From positions 738,322-802,321 of the forward strand of contig OY764083.1 of assembly GCA_963668095.1 (NCBI GenBank): a stretch of 64,000 nt of DNA. The letters run 5' to 3'. Of this stretch, positions 8,659 through 45,455 are shown piece by piece. Source of the stretch: Acidobacteriota bacterium (GTDB lineage Bacteria > Acidobacteriota > UBA6911 > RPQK01 > JAJDTT01). How positions within the stretch are numbered: position 1 is the stretch's first letter; the number at the start of each line of letters is the position of its first letter. The notes beneath the pieces were generated by a model, which was not told the DNA's origin, made no database searches, and saw only the letters and a list, made by a program, of their open reading frames with translations. The position numbers and the translations under genes were made by a program.

Positions 8659-10779
8659 TCAAGCCTCCCGTTCCAGGATGATGTTCAATCGCCGGTCGAG
8701 GCGGGCGCACCAGCCACTCGGGACCAGGGTCGTGGAGTCGTACTCTTCAATGAGCGCAGGACCGGGGAGAGCCTCCCCGTCCAATTCCAGCCGGCCCAGT
8801 ACCGGCGCTTCGATCCAGTCCGATCGCGAAGGACCCTGATAGATCCGCCGCGACCTCACCTGGGGTCGAAAGCCGTCGCTGCCCAGCGACAGGGTTTCGG
8901 GAACTCGAGCCACCTGGTCCAGACCGCGCGCCCGGACCCGGAGATTGACCAGTTCCAGCTCGGAATCCAGACGATAACCGTAGTTGGCCTCGTGCTCCCG
9001 GTGGAACGCAGCCTCCAGCACCTCCAGTCCGTCCCGATCCAGGTTCGAACCCTCGAATCGCACTCTCAAATGTGAGGTCTGCCCCTGGTATTTCAAGTCC
9101 GCTTCGGTCACCAATTTTCGGTAGCCGGCGGCAAACCCTTCCTGCTCCAAAAGGCCGCAGGCCTGCGCCCTCAGGCGGTCCAGCGTCCGGTTCACGGACG
9201 CGAGCCCCAATTGGGAGAGGGACTTCACCTGAGCCTGAACCAGGTGGTGCTCCACATCCGAGAAGAGGAGGCCGAAGCAACTGAACACCCCCGGAGAAGG
9301 AGGAATGATGATCCTGGTCATTTGCAACAGCCTGGCCAGACCCGCAGCGTGAAGAGGACCGCCGCCGCCGAAAGCCATGAGAGTGAAACGGCGCGGGTCG
9401 CGGCCCCGTTCGCTGGAGACGGCGGCGACGGCCCGGGCCATGTTGGAATTGGCCAGCTGATGGACACCCCAGGCCGCTTCGACGGCGGAGACACCGAGCG
9501 GGCCCGCCAGCCGGCGATCGATGACCGACCGCGCCCGGTCGGCGAAGACGGGAAAATCTCCACCCAGCAGGTATCGGCTGTTGAGAAACCCCAGAACCAG
9601 GTTGGCATCGGTGACCGTGGGGAGGTCGCCTCCCTGGCCGTAGCAGGCCGGACCCGGGACCGCGCCCGCGCTGTCGGGCCCGCAGGCGAGCGAGCCACCC
9701 TTGTCCACCCGGGCCACACTGCCGCCTCCGGCACTCACTTCCGCCAGGTCGATGGACGGAACCCTCAAGATATAGCCGGAGCCTTTCATCAGACGATGTC
9801 CCGAGCTCATTCCCCCGCCCACTTCGTACTCGCGGGCAATCAGAAGCTCCCCGTCCTCGATGATGGAGGACTTCGCGGTCGTGCCCCCCATGTCCAGCGT
9901 CAGAACGTTGGGCAGATTCAACCGTGCCGCCAGATGATGAGCCCCGACCACGCCGGCGGCGGGCCCCGACTCGACACAATGGATCGGCTCTTCGGCGGCC
10001 ACCCTGACGGATGCCCTTCCCCCGTTGGATTGCATTACCGTCAGGGGGACACCCACTCCCAGGTCTCGAAGCCCCTGATCCAGGCGTCCCAGGTAGCGAG
10101 CCACGATGGGACGGATGTAGGAGTTGATCACCGTGGTGCTGGTGCGCTCGTACTCGCCGGTCTCGGCCAGGAGACTGCTGGAGAGAGACAGGCTCAGGCC
10201 GGGAATTCTCTCCTCCAAGATTTCTCCGATCCGGGTCTCGTGCCAAGGATTGGCGTAGGAGTGAAGGAGGCAGACCGCCACCGAGCGAATCCCCTCCTCC
10301 AGCAGCACTTCGGCCGCTTTCTCCACGTCGGATTCCACCAAAGGCGCCAGCACCTGGCCCCGGTAGTCCGTACGCTCCCGGACCTCCAGCCGCAGACGGC
10401 GTTCCACCAGTGGAGGAGGCTTGCGATAGTAGAGATCGTAGAGTCGCGGCATTCGGAGACGCGAGATCTCCAGAACGTCCCGGAATCCTTCGGTCGTGAT
10501 CAGCGCCGTCCTCACTCCCCGGCCCTCCAGGATGGCGTTGGTGGCCAAGGTAAAGGCGTGGCTGACTTCCGAGAGACGGCCGGCCGTCAGTTCCAGCTCC
10601 CGAAGGCCGGCGTCAAGAGATTTGAGCACGGCTCGACTGTAGTCGTCGGGCGTGCTCACGATCTTCTTGACATGGACCCCTCCCCGGTCCGAGAGGAAAA
10701 CCACGTCGGTGAAGGTTCCCCCGATATCCACTCCCACCCGGTAACCGGGCGTGTCGGATCCGACGCTCTTCTGCTGCAT
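8659..10779 (-). CDS. hyuA: hydantoinase A / 5-oxoprolinase family subunit (HyuA)
   Basis: 706 aa. N-terminal YRVGVDIGGTFTDVV ATPase-fold motif of the hydantoinase/oxoprolinase N-terminal region. ATG verified at 10779. Confidence 0.8.
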   Translation of the reverse strand: MQQKSVGSDTPGYRVGVDIGGTFTDVVFLSDRGGVHVKKIVSTPDDYSRAVLKSLDAGLRELELTAGRLSEVSHAFTLATNAILEGRGVRTALITTEGFRDVLEISRLRMPRLYDLYYRKPPPLVERRLRLEVRERTDYRGQVLAPLVESDVEKAAEVLLEEGIRSVAVCLLHSYANPWHETRIGEILEERIPGLSLSLSSSLLAETGEYERTSTTVINSYIRPIVARYLGRLDQGLRDLGVGVPLTVMQSNGGRASVRVAAEEPIHCVESGPAAGVVGAHHLAARLNLPNVLTLDMGGTTAKSSIIEDGELLIAREYEVGGGMSSGHRLMKGSGYILRVPSIDLAEVSAGGGSVARVDKGGSLACGPDSAGAVPGPACYGQGGDLPTVTDANLVLGFLNSRYLLGGDFPVFADRARSVIDRRLAGPLGVSAVEAAWGVHQLANSNMARAVAAVSSERGRDPRRFTLMAFGGGGPLHAAGLARLLQMTRIIIPPSPGVFSCFGLLFSDVEHHLVQAQVKSLSQLGLASVNRTLDRLRAQACGLLEQEGFAAGYRKLVTEADLKYQGQTSHLRVRFEGSNLDRDGLEVLEAAFHREHEANYGYRLDSELELVNLRVRARGLDQVARVPETLSLGSDGFRPQVRSRRIYQGPSRSDWIEAPVLGRLELDGEALPGPALIEEYDSTTLVPSGWCARLDRRLNIILEREA

Positions 10780-10787
10780 CCTTGATT

Positions 10788-12314
10788 CTAGCGCCTCCAG
10801 GCGAACCAGCGGGACAGGATCTGCCGTGCCCGGGGAGTGAGCCGGGTTCGGTTGTAGGCATCGCCGACCTGTTTGATGGCCTCGGCCTGCGTCGGATACG
10901 GGTGGATCACCTGAGAGAGGGTCGTCAGGCCCAGCCCCGCGACCATGGCCAGCGTAATCTCGTTGATCATCTCTCCGGCATGCCGGGCGACCACGGTGGC
11001 GCCGAGAATCTTGTCGGTTCCCTTCGCCACCAGGACGCTGACCATACCCTCTTCCTCACCGTCGGTGATGGCCCGGTCCACTTCTGCGAATTCACGGACG
11101 AAGAGGTCGTATTCGATCCCCTGGCGGGAAGCCTCCCGGCAGTTCAGGCCCACATGGGCCACTTCCGGATCCGTGTAGGTGCACCAGGGAATGGTGAGGG
11201 TGCTGGCCTTCTTCCGTCCCATGAAGAGTGCGTTCTGAATGACGATACGAGCCAGAGCATCGGCGGCATGGGTGAACTTGTATTGGGAGCAGACGTCCCC
11301 GGCAGCGTAGATCCGCTTGTTGCTGGTCTGGAGCTGATCGTTCACCAGGACGCCGCGGCGGCGGTGGTATTCGACGCCGGCGGCCTCCAGGCCCAGCCCC
11401 TCCACGTTGGGGGCCCTCCCTGCAGCTACAAGCACCTCGTCGACGGCGACCTGCCGAGTCTGCCCGTTGCACTCGAGATGAACCCGTTTCTCACCTGCCC
11501 GGCTCTCCACTCGAAACACTCTCGAATCGAGGAAGAGCTCGATCCCTTCCCGGCGAAACGCGTCCTGGACCCTCCGGCCGGCTTCCGCGTCTTCCCTGTC
11601 CAGGATCCGCGAATGGTACTGAAAAAGGGAAACCCGGGACCCGAAACGTCCAAACGCCTGCGCCATTTCGCACCCGATGGGACCGCCGCCGATAACTCCC
11701 AACCGCGGGGGCAGCTCAGTCAAGGAGAACAAAGTCTCGTTGGTGAGATAGCCGGCCTCCTCCAGACCCTCGATGGGTGGCGCCGCCGCCCGTCCGCCGG
11801 TGGCGATGACGGCCCGCGCGAATCGCAACGTGTGTTCCCCCACCTGAACCGTATCTCGGCCCACGAAACGAGCTGCTCCCAGAAAAACGTCCACGCCGAG
11901 CTTCTGGAACCGCTCGGCCGAGTCGTGCGCGGCGATCCCGGAGCGCAGCCGGCGCATGCGCTCCATGACCGATGGGAAGTCCACTTCGGTTGCAACGGAC
12001 ACGTCGACGCCAAAAGCACCCGCCTCTCGGGCATCGGAGACAGCCCGGGAGGACCGGATCAGAGCCTTGGAGGGAACGCACCCGACGTTGAGACAGTCAC
12101 CTCCCAACAGGTGCTTCTCTATGAGGGCACAGCGGGCACCGAGGCCGGTCGCCCCCGCCGCCGACACCAGCCCCGCGGTTCCGCCTCCGATGGCCACCAG
12201 ATTGTAGCGAGGCGCCGGCTCGGGGTTGGTCCAATCCCCTGGATGGACCCGGGAGACCAGGAGCCGGTTATGGGAATCCATGGGAAGAACTTCAATGGAT
12301 TTCGATTCAGGCAT
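10788..12314 (-). CDS. FAD-dependent pyridine nucleotide-disulfide oxidoreductase (dihydrolipoyl dehydrogenase / mercuric reductase-like family)
   Basis: Track ORF extends to 12677 with a GC-rich junk N-terminus; real start taken as ATG 12314 (MPESKSIEVL...). FAD motif AIGGGTAGLVSA, redox disulfide GGDCLNVGCVPSK, NAD motif GVIGGGPIGCEMA, C-terminal HPYPTQAEA dimer-interface motif. No C-terminal Cys pair as in true MerA. Confidence 0.75.
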   Translation of the reverse strand: MPESKSIEVLPMDSHNRLLVSRVHPGDWTNPEPAPRYNLVAIGGGTAGLVSAAGATGLGARCALIEKHLLGGDCLNVGCVPSKALIRSSRAVSDAREAGAFGVDVSVATEVDFPSVMERMRRLRSGIAAHDSAERFQKLGVDVFLGAARFVGRDTVQVGEHTLRFARAVIATGGRAAAPPIEGLEEAGYLTNETLFSLTELPPRLGVIGGGPIGCEMAQAFGRFGSRVSLFQYHSRILDREDAEAGRRVQDAFRREGIELFLDSRVFRVESRAGEKRVHLECNGQTRQVAVDEVLVAAGRAPNVEGLGLEAAGVEYHRRRGVLVNDQLQTSNKRIYAAGDVCSQYKFTHAADALARIVIQNALFMGRKKASTLTIPWCTYTDPEVAHVGLNCREASRQGIEYDLFVREFAEVDRAITDGEEEGMVSVLVAKGTDKILGATVVARHAGEMINEITLAMVAGLGLTTLSQVIHPYPTQAEAIKQVGDAYNRTRLTPRARQILSRWFAWRR

Positions 12315-33624: not shown

Positions 33625-33745
33625 CCCCCAAAAAGGGACAGTCTGTTTTTCCGTGTGTTTTTCCGTGGGCCGCCCGGCCTACGCGTAGCGCGGGAAAAAA
33701 GGCGCGTAGCGCGGGAAAAAAGGGGACAGTCGTTTTTTCCGCAGA
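33625..33745. repeat. intergenic repeat cluster: two A/T-stem hairpins with GGGACAGTC loops flanking a 2x21-bp tandem (cgcgtagcgcgggaaaaaagg)
   Basis: Seen directly: ccaaaaaGGGACAGTCtgtttttcc (about 33630-33653), tandem cgcgtagcgcgggaaaaaagg x2 (about 33682-33723), then ggaaaaaaGGGGACAGTCgttttttcc (about 33715-33742). Confidence 0.7.
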
Positions 33746-34289
33746 CCTATTTTGCGACCTGCCCCGGATGTCCCAAGATTGTCGGGTGCCACTAAGGGAG
33801 AAGGTGGTCTGGCTCCACCTGCGCAGGAGATATTTTGAGCGACATTGGAGAAGATTCGAAAACAGGATTCCCGGAAAACTCTTCGGGATCTGGACTGAGT
33901 CTCCAATCCAGGCTTCTCATTTTGGTGCTCTGCCTGATTGTGGGAACAGTAGTCCTGCCGGGGAGACGAAACTATCTACGGAACCGCGACCATCGCAATT
34001 TCGGCTTGTAGGAGTCGCCGGCGCCTCGGGGCTTCCCGGAGGCCCAAGTTGGTATGAACCAAGCCGAAATCAGCCGCCTCGAGTTCTCGGCGGATTTCGG
34101 TCTGATCCGCGAAAATTGGATCGCCGTAGACGGTCTCTGGCGGCCTGAAACGAAGGGACGAAAGGTAAAGCATAGGCCCCTGAACGGTGGCCAGGCTCCC
34201 TGTGCGGAGGCGCACGTGTCAGGGAATTCCGTCCGGGTCACATCCTCGGCGCGAACCTCCGCCACTCTTCCTCCCGAAGAATCCGAAGA

Positions 34290-34726
34290 ATCGAGAAAAA
34301 TAGACTGTCCCCTTTTTCTGTCCCGGGTTGTCGGCAGCATTCCCACGACCGAAATATATCTGCATCCGGAGAAGCTCTGGACCGTCACGCTGGCAGATTG
34401 ACCGGGTGCAATCACGGGTGGGTCCCCGAGACCGAGGGCCACGCCAGCATCGTAAACTTCCATCATGCCCATTGCCGCCTCCATCGGCGGCGCGGGATTC
34501 CCTCCTCCGCGAGCGTAGCCAATTCCATGCTTGCGGGCTGGCCGACCGAGAATAGGGAGGTGGACGAGTCGTGGACCACAACCAATGGAGGAGTGATCAA
34601 CTGTCCCCGGGTCAGGTTGTGAATCGTAACTTCGTAGGTGGCCTGAGTCAGGCTGGAGGTGCCGGACGCCAAACCGAATAGCGCCGTAACCCAAACCAAG
34701 ACAATTGATCTTAGCATTCTTCTCAT
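34290..34726 (-). pseudogene. spondin_N-like secreted protein gene, frameshifted and interrupted (pseudogene)
   Basis: Frame A from ATG 34726 reads MRRMLRSIVLVWVTALFGLASGTSSLTQATYEVTIHNLTRGQLITPPLVVVHDSSTSLFSVGQPASMELATLAEEG, then hits a stop 11 codons later. The domain continues in a different frame from about 34498 (NPAPPMEAAMGMMEVYDAGVALGLGDPPVIAPGQSASVTVQSFSGCRYISVVGMLPTTRD) and runs into the hairpin repeat at about 34294-34319. The low-GC 5' end is conspicuous. Confidence 0.5.
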
Positions 34727-34821
34727 TCGACTCTCCTTTCCAATTATTGCGGATTACATACGAGAATTCAGGGCTGGTGCGCACTCGAACACCCAAAGCA
34801 ACGATTCAGAAAGGGACAGTC

Positions 34822-34905
34822 TCGATCCCCGGAACGCGATCCCCGGAACGGAACGGGAACGGAACGGAACGCGATCCCCGGAACGGAACGGGAACGGAAC
34901 GGAAC
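34822..34905. repeat. tandem repeat: 35-bp unit (cgatccccggaacggaacgggaacggaacggaacg) x2 plus partial copy, itself built of GGAACG hexamers; immediately preceded by a GGGACAGTC core
   Basis: Seen directly at about 34812-34912. Confidence 0.8.
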
Positions 34906-35086
34906 GCCTTATAAGACTAGAGCATCCCGCCCGGCATCAGAGCAGTGGACCTTTGGCAAATGGAAGCACGTCCGGCGGACCTTCCGCATATTGGGAGGAC
35001 AATTCAGTCTATTGGACGAGACACGTGCTCTGGGTCGTTCGGTGCCGCGGGGGCAGAATCGACGGACGGACGGAGATCAGGCGAGT

Positions 35087-36022
35087 CTACGGGACGAAGG
35101 CGTGCGAGCGTTGCTCCCGCAGGGAAAACATCACTCCGCCCAGTTGGGGGATGGGGTGTCGGCGACGTCGATATCGACCTTGCTTTCGATACGTCTCCAG
35201 CAGCTGCGCCACCTTCTCTGCCGGCCCGACGGCCAATCCGTCCGTCAGAAACCGCAGACGCCGGCGAAAGGCTCCGGCACAGGTAAATCCACGGCGCTCC
35301 TCCTGATCGAGGATCCACTGGGGGATCGCCGCCTGGTTCTCCCGGGTGGGGACAGCTCCTCGATAGTACAACCGGGACCGGTAACTGCTGTACACGTCCG
35401 TTCCGGGATCCGAGGGGAACAGCTCCTCCAGCGGAATCAGGCTTTGATTCTCGCCGGTGAGTCTCCAGCGGGCCGAGCCCCACTTCCATTGCTCGGGCCG
35501 CTTGACCAGTCCGGCCCGGACGGCGTTGAGTTCCACGTATAGAATCGCGTCTTGGACCGCTTCGGTTCCCAAGAGTTCCGGGTTCTTGAAACGTTCACTC
35601 CAAAAATGCCCTCGCCGTCGAAACTGGCGGTTGTACCACCGGGCATACTGCCCGTCCACGTTCTGCATTAGTTTCGAAACGTCAAAGAGACGCTGGTTGA
35701 ACGCCTCCCACTCGACGACGGTCCAATCGGCGGTTGTCTTCTCTGCCTTTTGCCCATAAAGCTTGTGGGCGATGTCCTCCAACTCCTCGCGGGACAAGGA
35801 GCGAGGCTTCTCAAAATGGACGACGAAGTGGAAGTGATTGCCCATGATCTGAAATGCGGCCAGACGACACCGGTAGACACTGACGTAGAACAACATCAGG
35901 TTCAGGAGTTTGCGACGGGCTTCGTGGTCTTCAAAGGGGAACCAATCGGTCCAGCCGGTGACTCGATTGGTGAGGTGATAGAAGGCGGCTTCTGAACTCT
36001 TGTGTCGCGCGGTTCGGGGCAT
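35087..36022 (-). CDS. REP-associated tyrosine transposase / IS200-like Y1 HuH transposase (TnpA_REP, long form)
   Basis: 311 aa from ATG 36022 (track start 36028 GTG). HuH motif IMGNHFHFVVHF. Conserved YARWYNRQFRRRGHFWSERFKNPEL block. Catalytic-Tyr block AILYVELNAVRAGLVKRPEQWKWGS. N-terminal AAFYHLTNRV. This matches the RAYT/PF01797 pattern. Confidence 0.7.
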   Translation of the reverse strand: MPRTARHKSSEAAFYHLTNRVTGWTDWFPFEDHEARRKLLNLMLFYVSVYRCRLAAFQIMGNHFHFVVHFEKPRSLSREELEDIAHKLYGQKAEKTTADWTVVEWEAFNQRLFDVSKLMQNVDGQYARWYNRQFRRRGHFWSERFKNPELLGTEAVQDAILYVELNAVRAGLVKRPEQWKWGSARWRLTGENQSLIPLEELFPSDPGTDVYSSYRSRLYYRGAVPTRENQAAIPQWILDQEERRGFTCAGAFRRRLRFLTDGLAVGPAEKVAQLLETYRKQGRYRRRRHPIPQLGGVMFSLREQRSHAFVP

Positions 36023-36243
36023 GAGCACGGTCTTCGGTGAATCGGACTCGCGAGGGAGTCGGTTCGCACCTCTGATGACAACAACGACTCAGAACCAAGA
36101 AAGGCGAAGGAACCTCACGAAAACCAGCACACCTCCCGTCTCTGAATGAAACCGAAGAAACGAGAAAAATAGACTGTCCCCTCTTTTCTGGGCGCGGAAT
36201 TCGACCTGGACGCCCTCCACTCCCATCTCCACCCGGATTCCGC

Positions 36244-37002
36244 TTAACCGTCCCGAAAACGATCGGCCGTGTCCTGTGGCTCGTATCCCAGGTCCCTCCG
36301 GGCGTTGTCCAGTGACCGGTAGTTCCACTTGTTGTCGGAGACCACGTAGTAGATCCCGAACTTCAGATCCTCAGGCGCATCGATACAGCGGCGGATCATC
36401 TGGGCGATGTCCGCGTGACTGCACCAGACCGAAAAATCCCGAACCTCGTTGGGCCGGTCGTTCCAATGAACCCGGCCGATACGGAGGCAGATCATGGACA
36501 GGCCCCACTGATCAGAGAAGAAGCGGCCCAATGTTTCGCCGAACGCCTTGCTGCAACCGTAGAGGCCGTTGGAGCGAATCAGAGACGTGTCCAGCAAGTC
36601 CCAGCCGGCCACTTCTTCGTAACGTCCCTCGACCAGGGCATCGTAGGGCGGATGCCGTTCCCACTCACTGACGGCGGCTCCGCTACTGGCGAAAATGACC
36701 CTCTCGACCCCCGCCGTCCGGGCCGCCTCGAACACGTTGTAGGTTCCGATGATATTGTGCGGGAGGATGTCCTCCCAGGTGGGGTCCCCCTGAGCCATGG
36801 CGGCCAGGTGGACGACGGTCTCCACTCCCTCGAATGCCGGCCGGATGGTCTCCAAATCGGCAATGTCCGCCTGCAGGCACGGAAGGCCTTCCACCGGGCG
36901 CCGGTTCAAGGCGCTCAGCTCGTACGCATCTCCCAGTTCCCGCCGGCAAATCTGCCCGATGAGTCCGCTCATGCCCGTGATCAATACTCTTTTCTTGGCC
37001 AT
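36244..37002 (-). CDS. NAD-dependent epimerase/dehydratase-family protein (extended SDR)
   Basis: 252 aa, ATG verified at 37002. MAKKRVLITGMSGLIGQ Rossmann motif. YGCSK catalytic YxxxK. Confidence 0.75.
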   Translation of the reverse strand: MAKKRVLITGMSGLIGQICRRELGDAYELSALNRRPVEGLPCLQADIADLETIRPAFEGVETVVHLAAMAQGDPTWEDILPHNIIGTYNVFEAARTAGVERVIFASSGAAVSEWERHPPYDALVEGRYEEVAGWDLLDTSLIRSNGLYGCSKAFGETLGRFFSDQWGLSMICLRIGRVHWNDRPNEVRDFSVWCSHADIAQMIRRCIDAPEDLKFGIYYVVSDNKWNYRSLDNARRDLGYEPQDTADRFRDG

Positions 37003-40091: not shown

Positions 40092-40230
40092 GAACGCCCC
40101 TCCGTAGAGTCGATATCAAATTTACGATGATCAGCATGCTGGCACCGTTCGCATGGTGATTCAACTGACCGTAGATGGCCTTTCTGCTGCGATAGGCTGC
40201 CGCTGAACGGCACGGCCCAGCAGAGGGCCG

Positions 40231-40391
40231 AAGGGGAAAAGGGTGACTGTCCCCTGCTCGGGAAAAAGGTGACGAAGGGGAAAAGGGTGACTGTCCCCTG
40301 CTCGGGAAAAAGGTGACGGGAAAAAGGTGACTGTCCCCTTCTCGCGACGGACGCGCGGGACCTTCTCGCGACGGACGGACGGACGCGCGGA
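40231..40391. repeat. BIME-like tandem cluster: 44-bp unit (gaaggggaaaagggtgactgtcccctgctcgggaaaaaggtgac) x2 plus a partial third copy, followed by ctcgcgacggacg repeats
   Basis: Seen directly. The unit carries the GACTGTCCCC core (reverse orientation of GGGGACAGTC) three times. Confidence 0.8.
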
Positions 40392-40427
40392 GGGAAATTA
40401 GGAGCGGTTGATGGCCGGACCGACGTT

Positions 40428-40928
40428 TTGCCCTCGAGGGGATCGGTTCACGACGAGACGAATGTTGATTTGAGTGCTCCTTTCGCGGTCGGCTGGGCGC
40501 GGGCAACCTGCTCGAGGCGGGTGAAGGCCAGCATTCTGTTTCGCCATCGCAACAGCGAAGGAGAACAGCGAAGGAGTACCCACAGGAGAAGCGGAGTCAA
40601 CGCGGCGACCGTACCGTCAACCCGGTTTGTCACCTTTGCCGAACAGGGAGAAGGTAAGTTTGGAACCGGAGTTGCCAATGCCAATCCTTCCGCCAAATCA
40701 GCTCACGTCACCTTTACTGCCAAGAACGCCGCGGGGCGATTACTGGCCAGCGTCGACAGGACACTGTTGCCTGGAGGCCATGACGCGCAGGGCATGTCGT
40801 CGCTGTTCGGTGCCACCAGCTTTACCGGATCGCTCGAAGTCACCTCTTCAGTGCCCATCGTCAGTCTTTCCATTAATATCGAAGCTGATCCCGTATTCTC
40901 CTCTTTGCCTCCTGGGGAAATTGAATAG
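40428..40928 (+). CDS. possible 5'-truncated or remnant gene for a secreted beta-rich protein
   Basis: The ORF starts right after the repeat cluster with a non-ATG codon. Only the C-terminal about 110 aa (…VTFTAKNAAGRLLASVDRTLLPGGHDAQGMSSLFGATSFTGSLEVTSSVPIVSLSINIEADPVF) look protein-like, with lower GC. May be a fragment. Confidence 0.25.
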   Translation: MPSRGSVHDETNVDLSAPFAVGWARATCSRRVKASILFRHRNSEGEQRRSTHRRSGVNAATVPSTRFVTFAEQGEGKFGTGVANANPSAKSAHVTFTAKNAAGRLLASVDRTLLPGGHDAQGMSSLFGATSFTGSLEVTSSVPIVSLSINIEADPVFSSLPPGEIE

Positions 40929-40971
40929 AAGCTGGAGTCCCATCCGGATTTTGGAGGAACTACAAAGTGAA

Positions 40972-44370: not shown

Positions 44371-45363
44371 ATGGTTGCCTATCTGCGCCGCCGCCTGCTC
44401 CAAGCGACCCTGACGATCTGGGCCATCAGCATCGTTTCGTTCGTTCTCATCGAGCTGCCACCGGGGGACTTCGTCACCGCCTACGTGGACCGGCGCGCCT
44501 CCCAGGGCATTCCCCTGCCGGCGGAGGAGATCCAGATCCTGAGAGTCCGTTATGGCTTGGACCAACCCGCAGCCCAGCGCTATCTGATCTGGATGGGTCG
44601 GTTGCTCCGCGGTGACCTCGGCGTCTCCTGGATTCGCGGGCAGCCGGTTTCGGAGATCATCTCCGATCGCCTCTGGTTGACCATGGCCGTATCTCTGGCC
44701 GCCATTCTGCTCACCTGGGCGGTGGCTCTGCCGGTGGGTGTCTACTCGGCCATTCGCCAATATTCGGCGGGAGACTATCTGTTCACACTCCTCTGCTTCG
44801 CCGGTGTCGGCGTCCCCAACTTCCTGCTCGGCCTCCTCGTCATGTACCTGGGATTCGTCTGGTTCGATGCGGATGTCGGCGGGCTCCTCTCATCCCAGTA
44901 CGTGGACGCCCCCTGGAACGCCGCCAAGCTTTGGGACCTGATCAAGCATCTTCCCCTACCGGCCCTGGTGCTGGGCCTGGGCGGAACGGCCTACATGATT
45001 CGGATCCTCCGTGCCAATCTGCTGGATGAACTGTCCAAACCGTACGTTCTCACCGCCAGGGCCAAGGGGCTCTCGGAGATCCGGCTCCTTCTCAAGTACC
45101 CCCTGCGCGTGGCCCTGAACCCGTTCGTCAGCACCGCCGGCTATCTGCTTCCCTATCTGGTCTCGGGCAGCGTCATCGTCTCCATGGTCATGAGCCTTCC
45201 CACCGTGGCGCCAGTGTTATTGTCGGCCCTCATGGACCAGGATCTTTACCTGGCCGGCACCCTGGTGCTCCTGCTGGGCGTGCTTACCGTGGTGGGAACG
45301 CTGATTTCGGATCTGCTTCTGCTCTGGATCGATCCCAGGATCCGGTTCCGGGGACAGTCATGA
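44371..45363 (+). CDS. ABC transporter permease (DppB/OppB-type)
   Basis: 330 aa, 6 TM helices, binding-protein-dependent permease signature region. Its last about 8 codons lie in the tandem repeat at 45340-45363. Confidence 0.85.
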   Translation: MVAYLRRRLLQATLTIWAISIVSFVLIELPPGDFVTAYVDRRASQGIPLPAEEIQILRVRYGLDQPAAQRYLIWMGRLLRGDLGVSWIRGQPVSEIISDRLWLTMAVSLAAILLTWAVALPVGVYSAIRQYSAGDYLFTLLCFAGVGVPNFLLGLLVMYLGFVWFDADVGGLLSSQYVDAPWNAAKLWDLIKHLPLPALVLGLGGTAYMIRILRANLLDELSKPYVLTARAKGLSEIRLLLKYPLRVALNPFVSTAGYLLPYLVSGSVIVSMVMSLPTVAPVLLSALMDQDLYLAGTLVLLLGVLTVVGTLISDLLLLWIDPRIRFRGQS

Positions 45364-45455
45364 ATCCAGAGCCACGGTCTTGGGGACAGTCATGAATCCG
45401 CCGGTTTTGGGGTCAGTCACGTGAATCCGCCGGTTTTGGGGACAGTCACGAATCC
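45340..45455. repeat. four tandem about 30-bp units (gaatcc-N-ggttttGGGGACAGTCAyg) spanning the permease-1 stop and the permease-2 start
   Basis: Seen directly: ccggttccggggacagtcatga / atccagagccacggtcttggggacagtcatg / aatccgccggttttggggtcagtcacgtg / aatccgccggttttggggacagtcacg. Confidence 0.8.

Follow-up and report, generated by a model that had tools for sequence, protein, structure and literature searches.

A RAYT-like Y1 transposase gene between inverted ends, a probable TIRtron, in an Acidobacteriota genome

Which sequences form the ends of a transposase gene when several copies of a similar repeat surround it? This question is raised by a gene for a Y1 (HUH) transposase in a 64,000-nucleotide stretch of an Acidobacteriota genome (contig OY764083.1, positions 738,322 to 802,321; hereafter the window, whose own numbering is used throughout). 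The initial annotation, made from the sequence of the window, assigned the gene to a 1.9-kb element at 34271–36190 of the IS200/IS605 type of insertion sequence (IS), bracketed by two nearly identical repeats in the same orientation that would each fold into a hairpin. Our comparison with related loci leads to a different picture. The locus is probably a TIRtron, that is, a cassette of approximately 1.37 kb encoding an enzyme that resembles the REP-associated tyrosine transposases (RAYTs; REP, repetitive extragenic palindrome). Such enzymes are known as TIRYTs. The cassette has inverted copies of a short unit as its ends, and further copies of this unit occur singly and in tandem arrays in intergenic DNA.

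The cassette and its ends

The cassette appears to extend from core to core between 34813 and 36180 (about 1.37 kb), with one intact Y1/HUH gene between inverted ends. Its parts, listed in the direction of the gene, are the following.

36148–36190, minus strand: upstream (left) end unit, with the 9-nt core GGGACAGTC at 36172–36180 on the minus strand, a purine run outside and TATTTTTCTCGTTTCTTCGG inside; the right-hand repeat of the initial annotation.
36023–36147, minus strand: 5' untranslated leader of the cassette, alignable among cassettes.
35087–36022, minus strand: Y1/HUH transposase gene, identified from Pfam, fold search, hhalign and the ratio of nonsynonymous to synonymous substitution rates (dN/dS).
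34900–35086, minus strand: 3' untranslated part of the cassette, alignable to cassettes with the same type of 3' module.
34830–34899, no strand assigned: two exact tandem copies of a 35-bp sequence composed of GTTCC(C)G tracts together with an inner portion of the downstream end (CCGGGGATCG).
34805–34832, plus strand: downstream (right) end unit, with the core GGGACAGTC at 34813–34821 on the plus strand, inverted with respect to the upstream end, and TCGATCCCCGG inside.

A scan of one genome per species identified 45 related loci, with proteins 76–94% identical, all from uncultured Acidobacteriota; together with the window they make up the 46 loci counted below. At least 11 copies are present in OZ246889.1 (a 5.2-Mb chromosome) and at least 9 in CBDCJH010000002.1. 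The nearest core 5' of the start codon is forward-oriented in 45 of the 46 loci, mostly at −120 to −310. Downstream, the nearest core is reverse-oriented in 38 of 46, mostly at +1100 to +1250, or approximately 170–320 nt beyond the stop codon. The inverted core of the window lies at this same place, 1201 nt from the ATG and 268 nt past the stop codon, on the strand opposite to that of the upstream end. In alignments of the flanks, homology among paralogues starts at '...ARAAG-GGGACAGTC-TRTTTTTCC' and stops at 'CCGGGAATCGA-GACTGTCCC-TTTC'. Since homology is bounded at the cores, the ends are short inverted repeats consisting of a purine run and GGGACAGTCT, with inner sequences that differ between the two ends. 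Homologues of about 55% identity were fetched separately, and clear inverted arms are found in L050 (core AAGGGACAGAC) and L052 (core AAGGGGACAG), with a weaker pair in L051.

The core is nearly invariant, while the untranslated parts of the cassette drift at a neutral rate. Both the leader and the 3' untranslated part diverge as fast as 4-fold degenerate sites, and they therefore carry no sign of additional constraint. The leader matches no Rfam family and contains no recognizable promoter consensus. A constrained non-coding RNA in the leader or trailer was considered and rejected on these grounds. The 35-bp tandem repeat was correctly described in the initial annotation, and the inner downstream end is partly reduplicated in other loci as well (e.g. 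L001, L006 and L026).

The encoded protein

The protein encoded between these ends is a RAYT-type Y1/HUH enzyme, as had been proposed. The minus-strand open reading frame (ORF) is intact, with 311 codons and a stop codon and its ATG at 36022. The protein contains the motif NHFH (H63 and H65) and the motif YVELNAVRAGLV with Y162, and the tyrosine block reads Y162-VELNAVRAG. The tyrosine motif (Y162-V-E-L-N166) is thus of the Y-x-x-x-N type typical of RAYTs, not the Y-x-x-x-Q type of IS200. H63, H65 and Y162 are invariant across 16 homologues, down to 52% identity. The profile searches suggested in the initial annotation gave a divided result: the Pfam family Y1_Tnp matches with 31.5 bits (cutoff 23), but the curated RAYT model of NCBIfam (NF047646, REP_Tyr_transpos) reaches 49.4 bits and so remains below its cutoff of 80.

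An AlphaFold (AF2) model of the protein is confident for residues 10–245. When this model was compared with the Protein Data Bank (PDB), the top match was 4er8_A, the E. coli TnpA-REP in complex with a REP hairpin (E 9.1e-7, template modeling score 0.71 on the target), followed by the TnpA structures of IS200, IS608 and ISDra2. Searches of the PDB from sequence were too weak to find this match, and the fold search was therefore needed: from the single sequence 4er8 was recovered at E 0.29 only, and a narrow profile of 16 sequences retrieved nothing relevant. The assignment as a RAYT-type Y1 enzyme follows from the Pfam match, the invariant catalytic residues, and TnpA-REP as the best fold match.

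The gene is under purifying selection. All 311 codons are kept in each of 40 full-length copies tested, and dN/dS against paralogues is 0.15–0.40 (about 0.25). No tnpB is present. The 311-residue architecture is widespread in metagenomes, with 92 clusters (at 50% identity) matching at E < 1e-30. Named holders are Acidobacteriota, Aminicenantes and one Desulfonatronum, where the protein is annotated 'transposase' or 'RayT'.

Residues 208–311 (window 35090–35401) are conserved in all full-length homologues, and model confidence is low beyond residue 245. By eye, the C-terminal motif G-x-A-V-G-P-A-E-K-V-x-x-L-L-E resembles the motif G-R-P-L-G-x-x-x-F-V-x-x-L-E of TIRYTs, for which a C-terminal helix-turn-helix-like domain has been published.

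The direct repeats and the interval beyond the downstream end

The two direct repeats that had been taken as the ends of the element are genuine. They are 39 nt in length (34279–34317 and 36148–36186) and identical at 36 of 39 positions (92%). The 20-mer GAGAAAAATAGACTGTCCCC common to both occurs exactly twice in the window and never in 100 shuffles, and the repeats are therefore not due to chance.

The hairpins proposed for these repeats did not hold up. The 7-bp stem AGAAAAA/TTTTTCT is found in the left copy only (−4.2 kcal/mol, z = −0.96 against shuffles), and in the right copy the stem is interrupted (−3.0 kcal/mol, z = −0.02). Folding of both repeats, on both strands, and of three other units led us to reject a hairpin model, as just one unrelated unit (33700–33750) reached z = −2.3. 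Covariation is also absent: a position-by-position complementarity matrix over 269 distinct units contains no helix diagonal around the core.

The right repeat is the upstream end unit of the cassette. The left repeat has matches in the upstream ends of L004 and L026 and in upstream-end-type units of L013, at least two of which (4527 and 7534) have no Y1 gene after them. Its similarity to the leader ends after approximately 25–30 nt, and in the family it is common for either end to be partly reduplicated along with some of the internal sequence next to it. By this comparison, the direct repeats are the upstream end of the cassette and a solo partial copy of that end, located 0.5 kb beyond the real downstream end. 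The case has a bearing on annotation, in that a pair of similar repeats flanking a Y1 gene does not necessarily mark its ends. The features of the region beyond the downstream end are the following.

34320–34726, minus strand: spondin-domain pseudogene truncated at the solo unit, in which a signal peptide and the N-terminal half of the domain remain and a single frameshift lies near 34457–34511.
34279–34317, minus strand: solo partial copy of the upstream-end unit, with a core at 34303–34311 and about 25 nt of leader; the left-hand repeat of the initial annotation.
33630–33653 and 33718–33741, plus strand (opposite in orientation to the solo copy): two upstream-end-type units, with a 21-bp sequence repeated twice in tandem between them.

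The broken spondin-like gene had been noticed before and is confirmed here. With the frameshift repaired, it matches NCBIfam NF038123 with 69.6 bits (cutoff 40) over profile positions 1–103 of 206 only, and both frames are visible by tblastn. The fragment has no tblastn match in 49 loci, and one metagenome scan gave just a 43% relative. More generally, segment 34325–34808 is found in no other copy of the cassette. It is absent from the same slot in L026 (OZ246889.1), where 167 bp separate alignment blocks that are approximately 1.3 kb apart in the window. The comparison with related genomes recommended in the initial annotation thus speaks against the 1.9-kb element as a unit. This interval consists of the intact cassette, unrelated pseudogene debris and a stray end copy, and the accompanying caveat that the element might be 'composite or decayed' was apt.

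The 21-bp tandem repeat (CGCGTAGCGCGGGAAAAAAGG, two exact copies at 33682–33723) lies directly before the unit at 33718–33741. The approximately 0.5 kb between the oppositely oriented upstream-end-type units (33742–34278) has no homologue in the fetched loci and no domain match. We considered whether a second, decayed cassette might lie at 33630–34317. This was rejected, as tblastn finds no Y1 remnant there and the units at 33630 and 33718 are both of the upstream-end type, not the downstream-end type.

Dispersed units and arrays

The core GGGACAGTC is not confined to the cassette. It occurs 11 times in the window compared with 1.3 expected, in five intergenic clusters, and this abundance also argues against the view that the two direct repeats specifically bracket an element. 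In 668 kb of flanking sequence, cores more than 2 kb from any Y1 gene are found at approximately 105 per Mb, compared with approximately 12 per Mb expected from composition. Two arrays in the window were identified by the core search.

40245–40337, minus strand: array of three units, intergenic and away from the cassette.
45351–45447, plus strand: array of three units and the variant GGGTCAGTC, between two co-oriented ORFs.

The first of these arrays differs in copy number between relatives, with three units in the window, eight in the orthologous region of L026 and five in L031. Both arrays coincide with, or lie close to, breaks in the alignments to related genomes; the break at 40190–40966 is present in every genome compared.

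Duplication, relocation and deletion at the cassette

The association of the gene with the units is accompanied by changes in both the units and the cassette, and these are seen in the comparison with related genomes. Two copies in the same genome, L037 and L038, are 99.7% identical from −200 to +1177 (1378 bp) and have unrelated flanks. The shared segment extends beyond the cores by 2 nt at its start and by 8 nt at its end, and the limits of the duplicated unit therefore map to the inverted cores. This pair is the sole clean recent duplicate. The sequences just outside the ends contain no direct target duplication, either in the window or in L037/L038.

In the window, the cassette lies in a neighborhood of oxidoreductase, TIM-barrel isomerase, epimerase and aldolase genes that is colinear in six other genomes, all of which contain the cassette. 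Its place within this neighborhood varies around a gene of the mandelate-racemase/MLE family (MR_MLE). In L012 and L015, the cassette is between the MR_MLE gene and the epimerase gene. In L031 and L040, it is on the opposite side of the MR_MLE gene and on the opposite strand. Two to three solo units remain at the alternative cassette site in L012 and L015. We considered and rejected the explanation that the cassette had simply inverted in place between its ends, as the orientation of the MR_MLE gene is constant while the cassette changes both side and strand.

The MR_MLE gene is intact (386 aa) in these four loci, and the intact gene contains the Pfam domains MR_MLE_N and MR_MLE_C. In the window only a remnant is left.

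36188–36244, plus strand: remnant of the MR_MLE-family gene consisting of its last 19 codons, found by tblastn with the intact 386-aa L012 gene (84% identity, residues 368–386).

The rest of the gene is deleted, and the remnant abuts the outer edge of the upstream unit of the cassette.

Up to 11 copies per genome were found, and median amino acid identity is 86%, with a single pair that reaches 99.7% across the entire unit. Copies that occupy the same slot in different genomes are closest to paralogues in their own genome (up to 99.0%), compared with 83–92% to their positional counterparts. Additionally, several highly similar pairs are alike in the coding region only and not in the ends (L001/L002 and L026/L044). 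The likeness within genomes and the pairs that share only the coding region together suggest gene conversion in addition to duplication.

Relation to known elements

TIRtrons and TIRYTs were named by Di Nocera, De Gregorio and Rocco (2013, BMC Genomics 14:522; PMC3733652) for RAYT-like genes flanked by terminal inverted repeats (TIRs), not REPs. Many TIRtron repeats share the sequence GGGGWSAS; they occur as single copies, dimers and clusters, and acidobacterial examples are included (PMC3733652). The locus described here is similar in several respects. Terminal inverted repeats, and not GTAG-tagged REP hairpins, lie on both sides of a RAYT-like Y1 gene at distances like those in the published TIRtrons, and single or clustered repeats are dispersed as in some published members. 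The upstream-end core GGGGACAG fits GGGGWSAS, and the downstream end of the window has only GGGACAG. Of the homologues with about 55% identity, L051 and L052 likewise contain GGGGWSAS, and L050 has the near-variant AAGGGACAGAC. We rebuilt the published TIRYT sequences from the 2013 supplement for hhalign. Residues 1–207 of the family profile align with the long TIRYT group with a probability of 99.8 (E 1.4e-29). The short 'Acidobacteria' TIRYT group (aba1552, aba3477 and aca645) is not close (E 1e-6 to 1e-9). However, the protein is 311 aa in length compared with 216–238 aa in published TIRYTs; approximately 38 aa are inserted after the HUH strand, before the following helix, and the C-terminal region, approximately 100 aa long, gave no alignment to the published sequences. 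In addition, copies number 2–11 per genome here compared with 1–3.

Quentin, Siguier, Chandler and Fichant (2018; PMC6006769) equated TnpAY1 subclass 2.1, which has the motifs NH[YF]H and YIELNP, with TIRYTs. In the literature searched, the term TIRYT appears in this study and that of 2013 only. Subclass 2.3 of Quentin and colleagues is characterized by proteins of 325 aa (median) with 55 aa inserted between beta3 and alphaC, by the motifs NHYH and YVDLNP, and by a subclass-specific distal C-terminal domain (PMC6006769). It is found in Chromatiales and Alteromonadales without flanking repeats, with more than five copies in some genomes and approximately 75% identity between copies (PMC6006769). 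By description only, the present family resembles subclass 2.3 in its length of 311 aa, its motifs (NHFH or NHYH, and YVELNA), an insertion at the same place and diverged copies that are 76–99% identical. However, flanking inverted units and dispersed arrays are clear here, whereas subclass 2.3 was reported without flanking repeats and from gammaproteobacteria.

REPtrons, represented by the RAYT or TnpA-REP of E. coli (YafM, 4ER8), provide the best structural match and share the Y-x-x-x-N motif. Inverted copies of a short repeat flank the gene in both cases, and the repeat is also abundant extragenically. The REP of a REPtron is an imperfect palindrome of 20–40 nt with a 5' GT[AG]G tag. Most units in the present family lack GTAG (few have AAGTAG) and form no convincing palindrome or hairpin, and the protein scores below the cutoff of the curated RAYT model. 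The family is also multi-copy and does not have approximately one gene per repeat family. Compared with the 1.3–1.8 copies per replicon of RAYT groups (PMC5581495), 2–11 copies per genome is high.

IS200/IS605 elements such as IS608 and ISDra2 share the Y1/HUH fold and the catalytic residues, and no target duplication is seen here, as in those elements. IS200-type TnpA proteins are approximately 150 aa in length with a Y-x-x-x-Q motif (PMC6006769). The present protein is twice as long and lacks the Q. The locus also differs in having inverted copies of an asymmetric core at its ends, not same-strand sub-terminal hairpins, and in lacking tnpB. With regard to the many near-identical copies of such elements the comparison is mixed, as most copies here are diverged and one pair is nearly identical.

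Interpretation

We regard a TIRtron as the probable identity of the locus. Under this explanation, the enzyme would be a single-strand-DNA endonuclease-ligase that cleaves and rejoins DNA at the units by means of the H63/H65 metal site and Tyr162. Cutting and rejoining would multiply and shuffle the units, leading to changes in array copy number, partial reduplications of the ends and adjacent deletions. Occasionally the whole cassette would be copied or relocated, and the similarity of copies within a genome would be maintained by gene conversion between its many paralogues. That the enzyme acts on the units is what we infer from its conserved HUH/Tyr chemistry, the near-invariant core and the analogy with TnpA-REP.

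Several observations weigh against this explanation. We found no biochemical work on any TIRYT in the literature searched, so enzyme action is an inference from association. For a Y1 enzyme that works on a single strand, two inverted ends cannot be equivalent, as each carries the core on a different strand. The IS608 scheme therefore cannot account for movement of the whole cassette, which the TIRtron explanation leaves unexplained. The position of the cassette is conserved in seven genomes, which indicates that most copies are old and vertically inherited. The orientation of the cassette has no bias with respect to local GC skew, a crude proxy for the replication strand (19 compared with 24, p 0.54). 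The inverted ends of the window share only approximately 13 of 15 nt and are convincing only through the 46-locus comparison, in which the downstream unit is in direct orientation in four loci and not within range in four more, two of these being contig ends.

The conserved position also favors the main rival explanation, which we consider unlikely, that these are domesticated, immobile host Y1 genes, the GGGACAGTC units being REP-like intergenic elements of the host (e.g. for protein binding or at RNA ends) and conversion alone accounting for the likeness of the copies. Consistent with it are the shared TIM-barrel/epimerase neighborhood of the seven genomes, the intactness of all copies under purifying selection, the distance of most paralogues from each other (6–24% at the protein level), and the pairs that share only the coding region, as conversion predicts. 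RAYTs in general behave as vertically inherited genes (PMC5581495). However, an immobile gene would not readily give the 1378-bp core-to-core duplicate with unrelated flanks, a cassette whose side and orientation relative to the MR_MLE gene vary, or a deletion of the neighboring gene that stops exactly at the upstream unit, and up to 11 copies per genome exceeds what is seen in RAYT groups. These same three arrangements suggest that the cassette may still transpose. A tentative possibility is therefore that the 311-aa family is an undescribed Y1 subclass whose TIR-bounded cassette moves as a unit. If so, its mode of Y1 transposition would be one not yet described and not the peel-and-paste of the IS608 type, for instance coordinated cuts on both strands or copying via a fold-back of the whole cassette. 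The interest of the family would rise if the cassette were shown to move in this way.

Two classical kinds of mobile element fit less well. The IS200/IS605-type peel-and-paste element with same-strand sub-terminal hairpins at 34271 and 36190 is very improbable and already contradicted. Its direct repeats are real and non-random, the left copy can form the 7-bp A/T stem, four of the 46 loci do have a direct downstream unit, and the transposases of IS200/IS605 are Y1 enzymes. Against this are the inverted downstream partner in most loci, at the place of the inverted core in the window, the restriction of 34325–34808 to this one copy, hairpin energies no better than those of shuffles with no covariation, a protein of RAYT/TIRYT type by length, motif and profile, and the missing tnpB. 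Least probable of all is a double-strand cut-and-paste IS in which a DDE-like activity would bind the inverted repeats and the likeness to Y1 enzymes would be incidental. Short terminal inverted repeats around a single-gene unit of about 1.4 kb would suit such an element, but the sole ORF encodes a Y1/HUH protein with invariant catalytic residues and a matching fold, the ends lack a direct target duplication, and tandem arrays with solo units are REP-like and atypical of DDE elements.

TIRtrons have been known since 2013 but have been little studied, and this locus adds a member. The family is unusually good material for their study: genomes contain as many as 11 intact copies under selection, the core is very short and nearly invariant, related genomes differ in the number of units per array, and one clean recent duplicate maps the edges of the unit. 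It raises the questions of whether RAYT-like enzymes act on inverted repeats that are not hairpins, and of how a single-strand enzyme handles inverted ends.

Rearranged copies in related loci

Several related loci contain more complex arrangements. In L013, two Y1 cassettes are present in tandem (8908–9841 and approximately 11230–12169), about 1.3 kb apart. For each of them the nearest downstream unit is direct, not inverted, and several more same-strand units of the upstream-end type are nearby. L009 contains a partial internal reduplication of the cassette, in which the first 47 codons are followed by the leader and then by the full gene, and the gene-region match in L027 is over-long like that of L009. 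Downstream of both L037 and L038 are extra tandem copies of the last 220–265 bp together with the downstream end.

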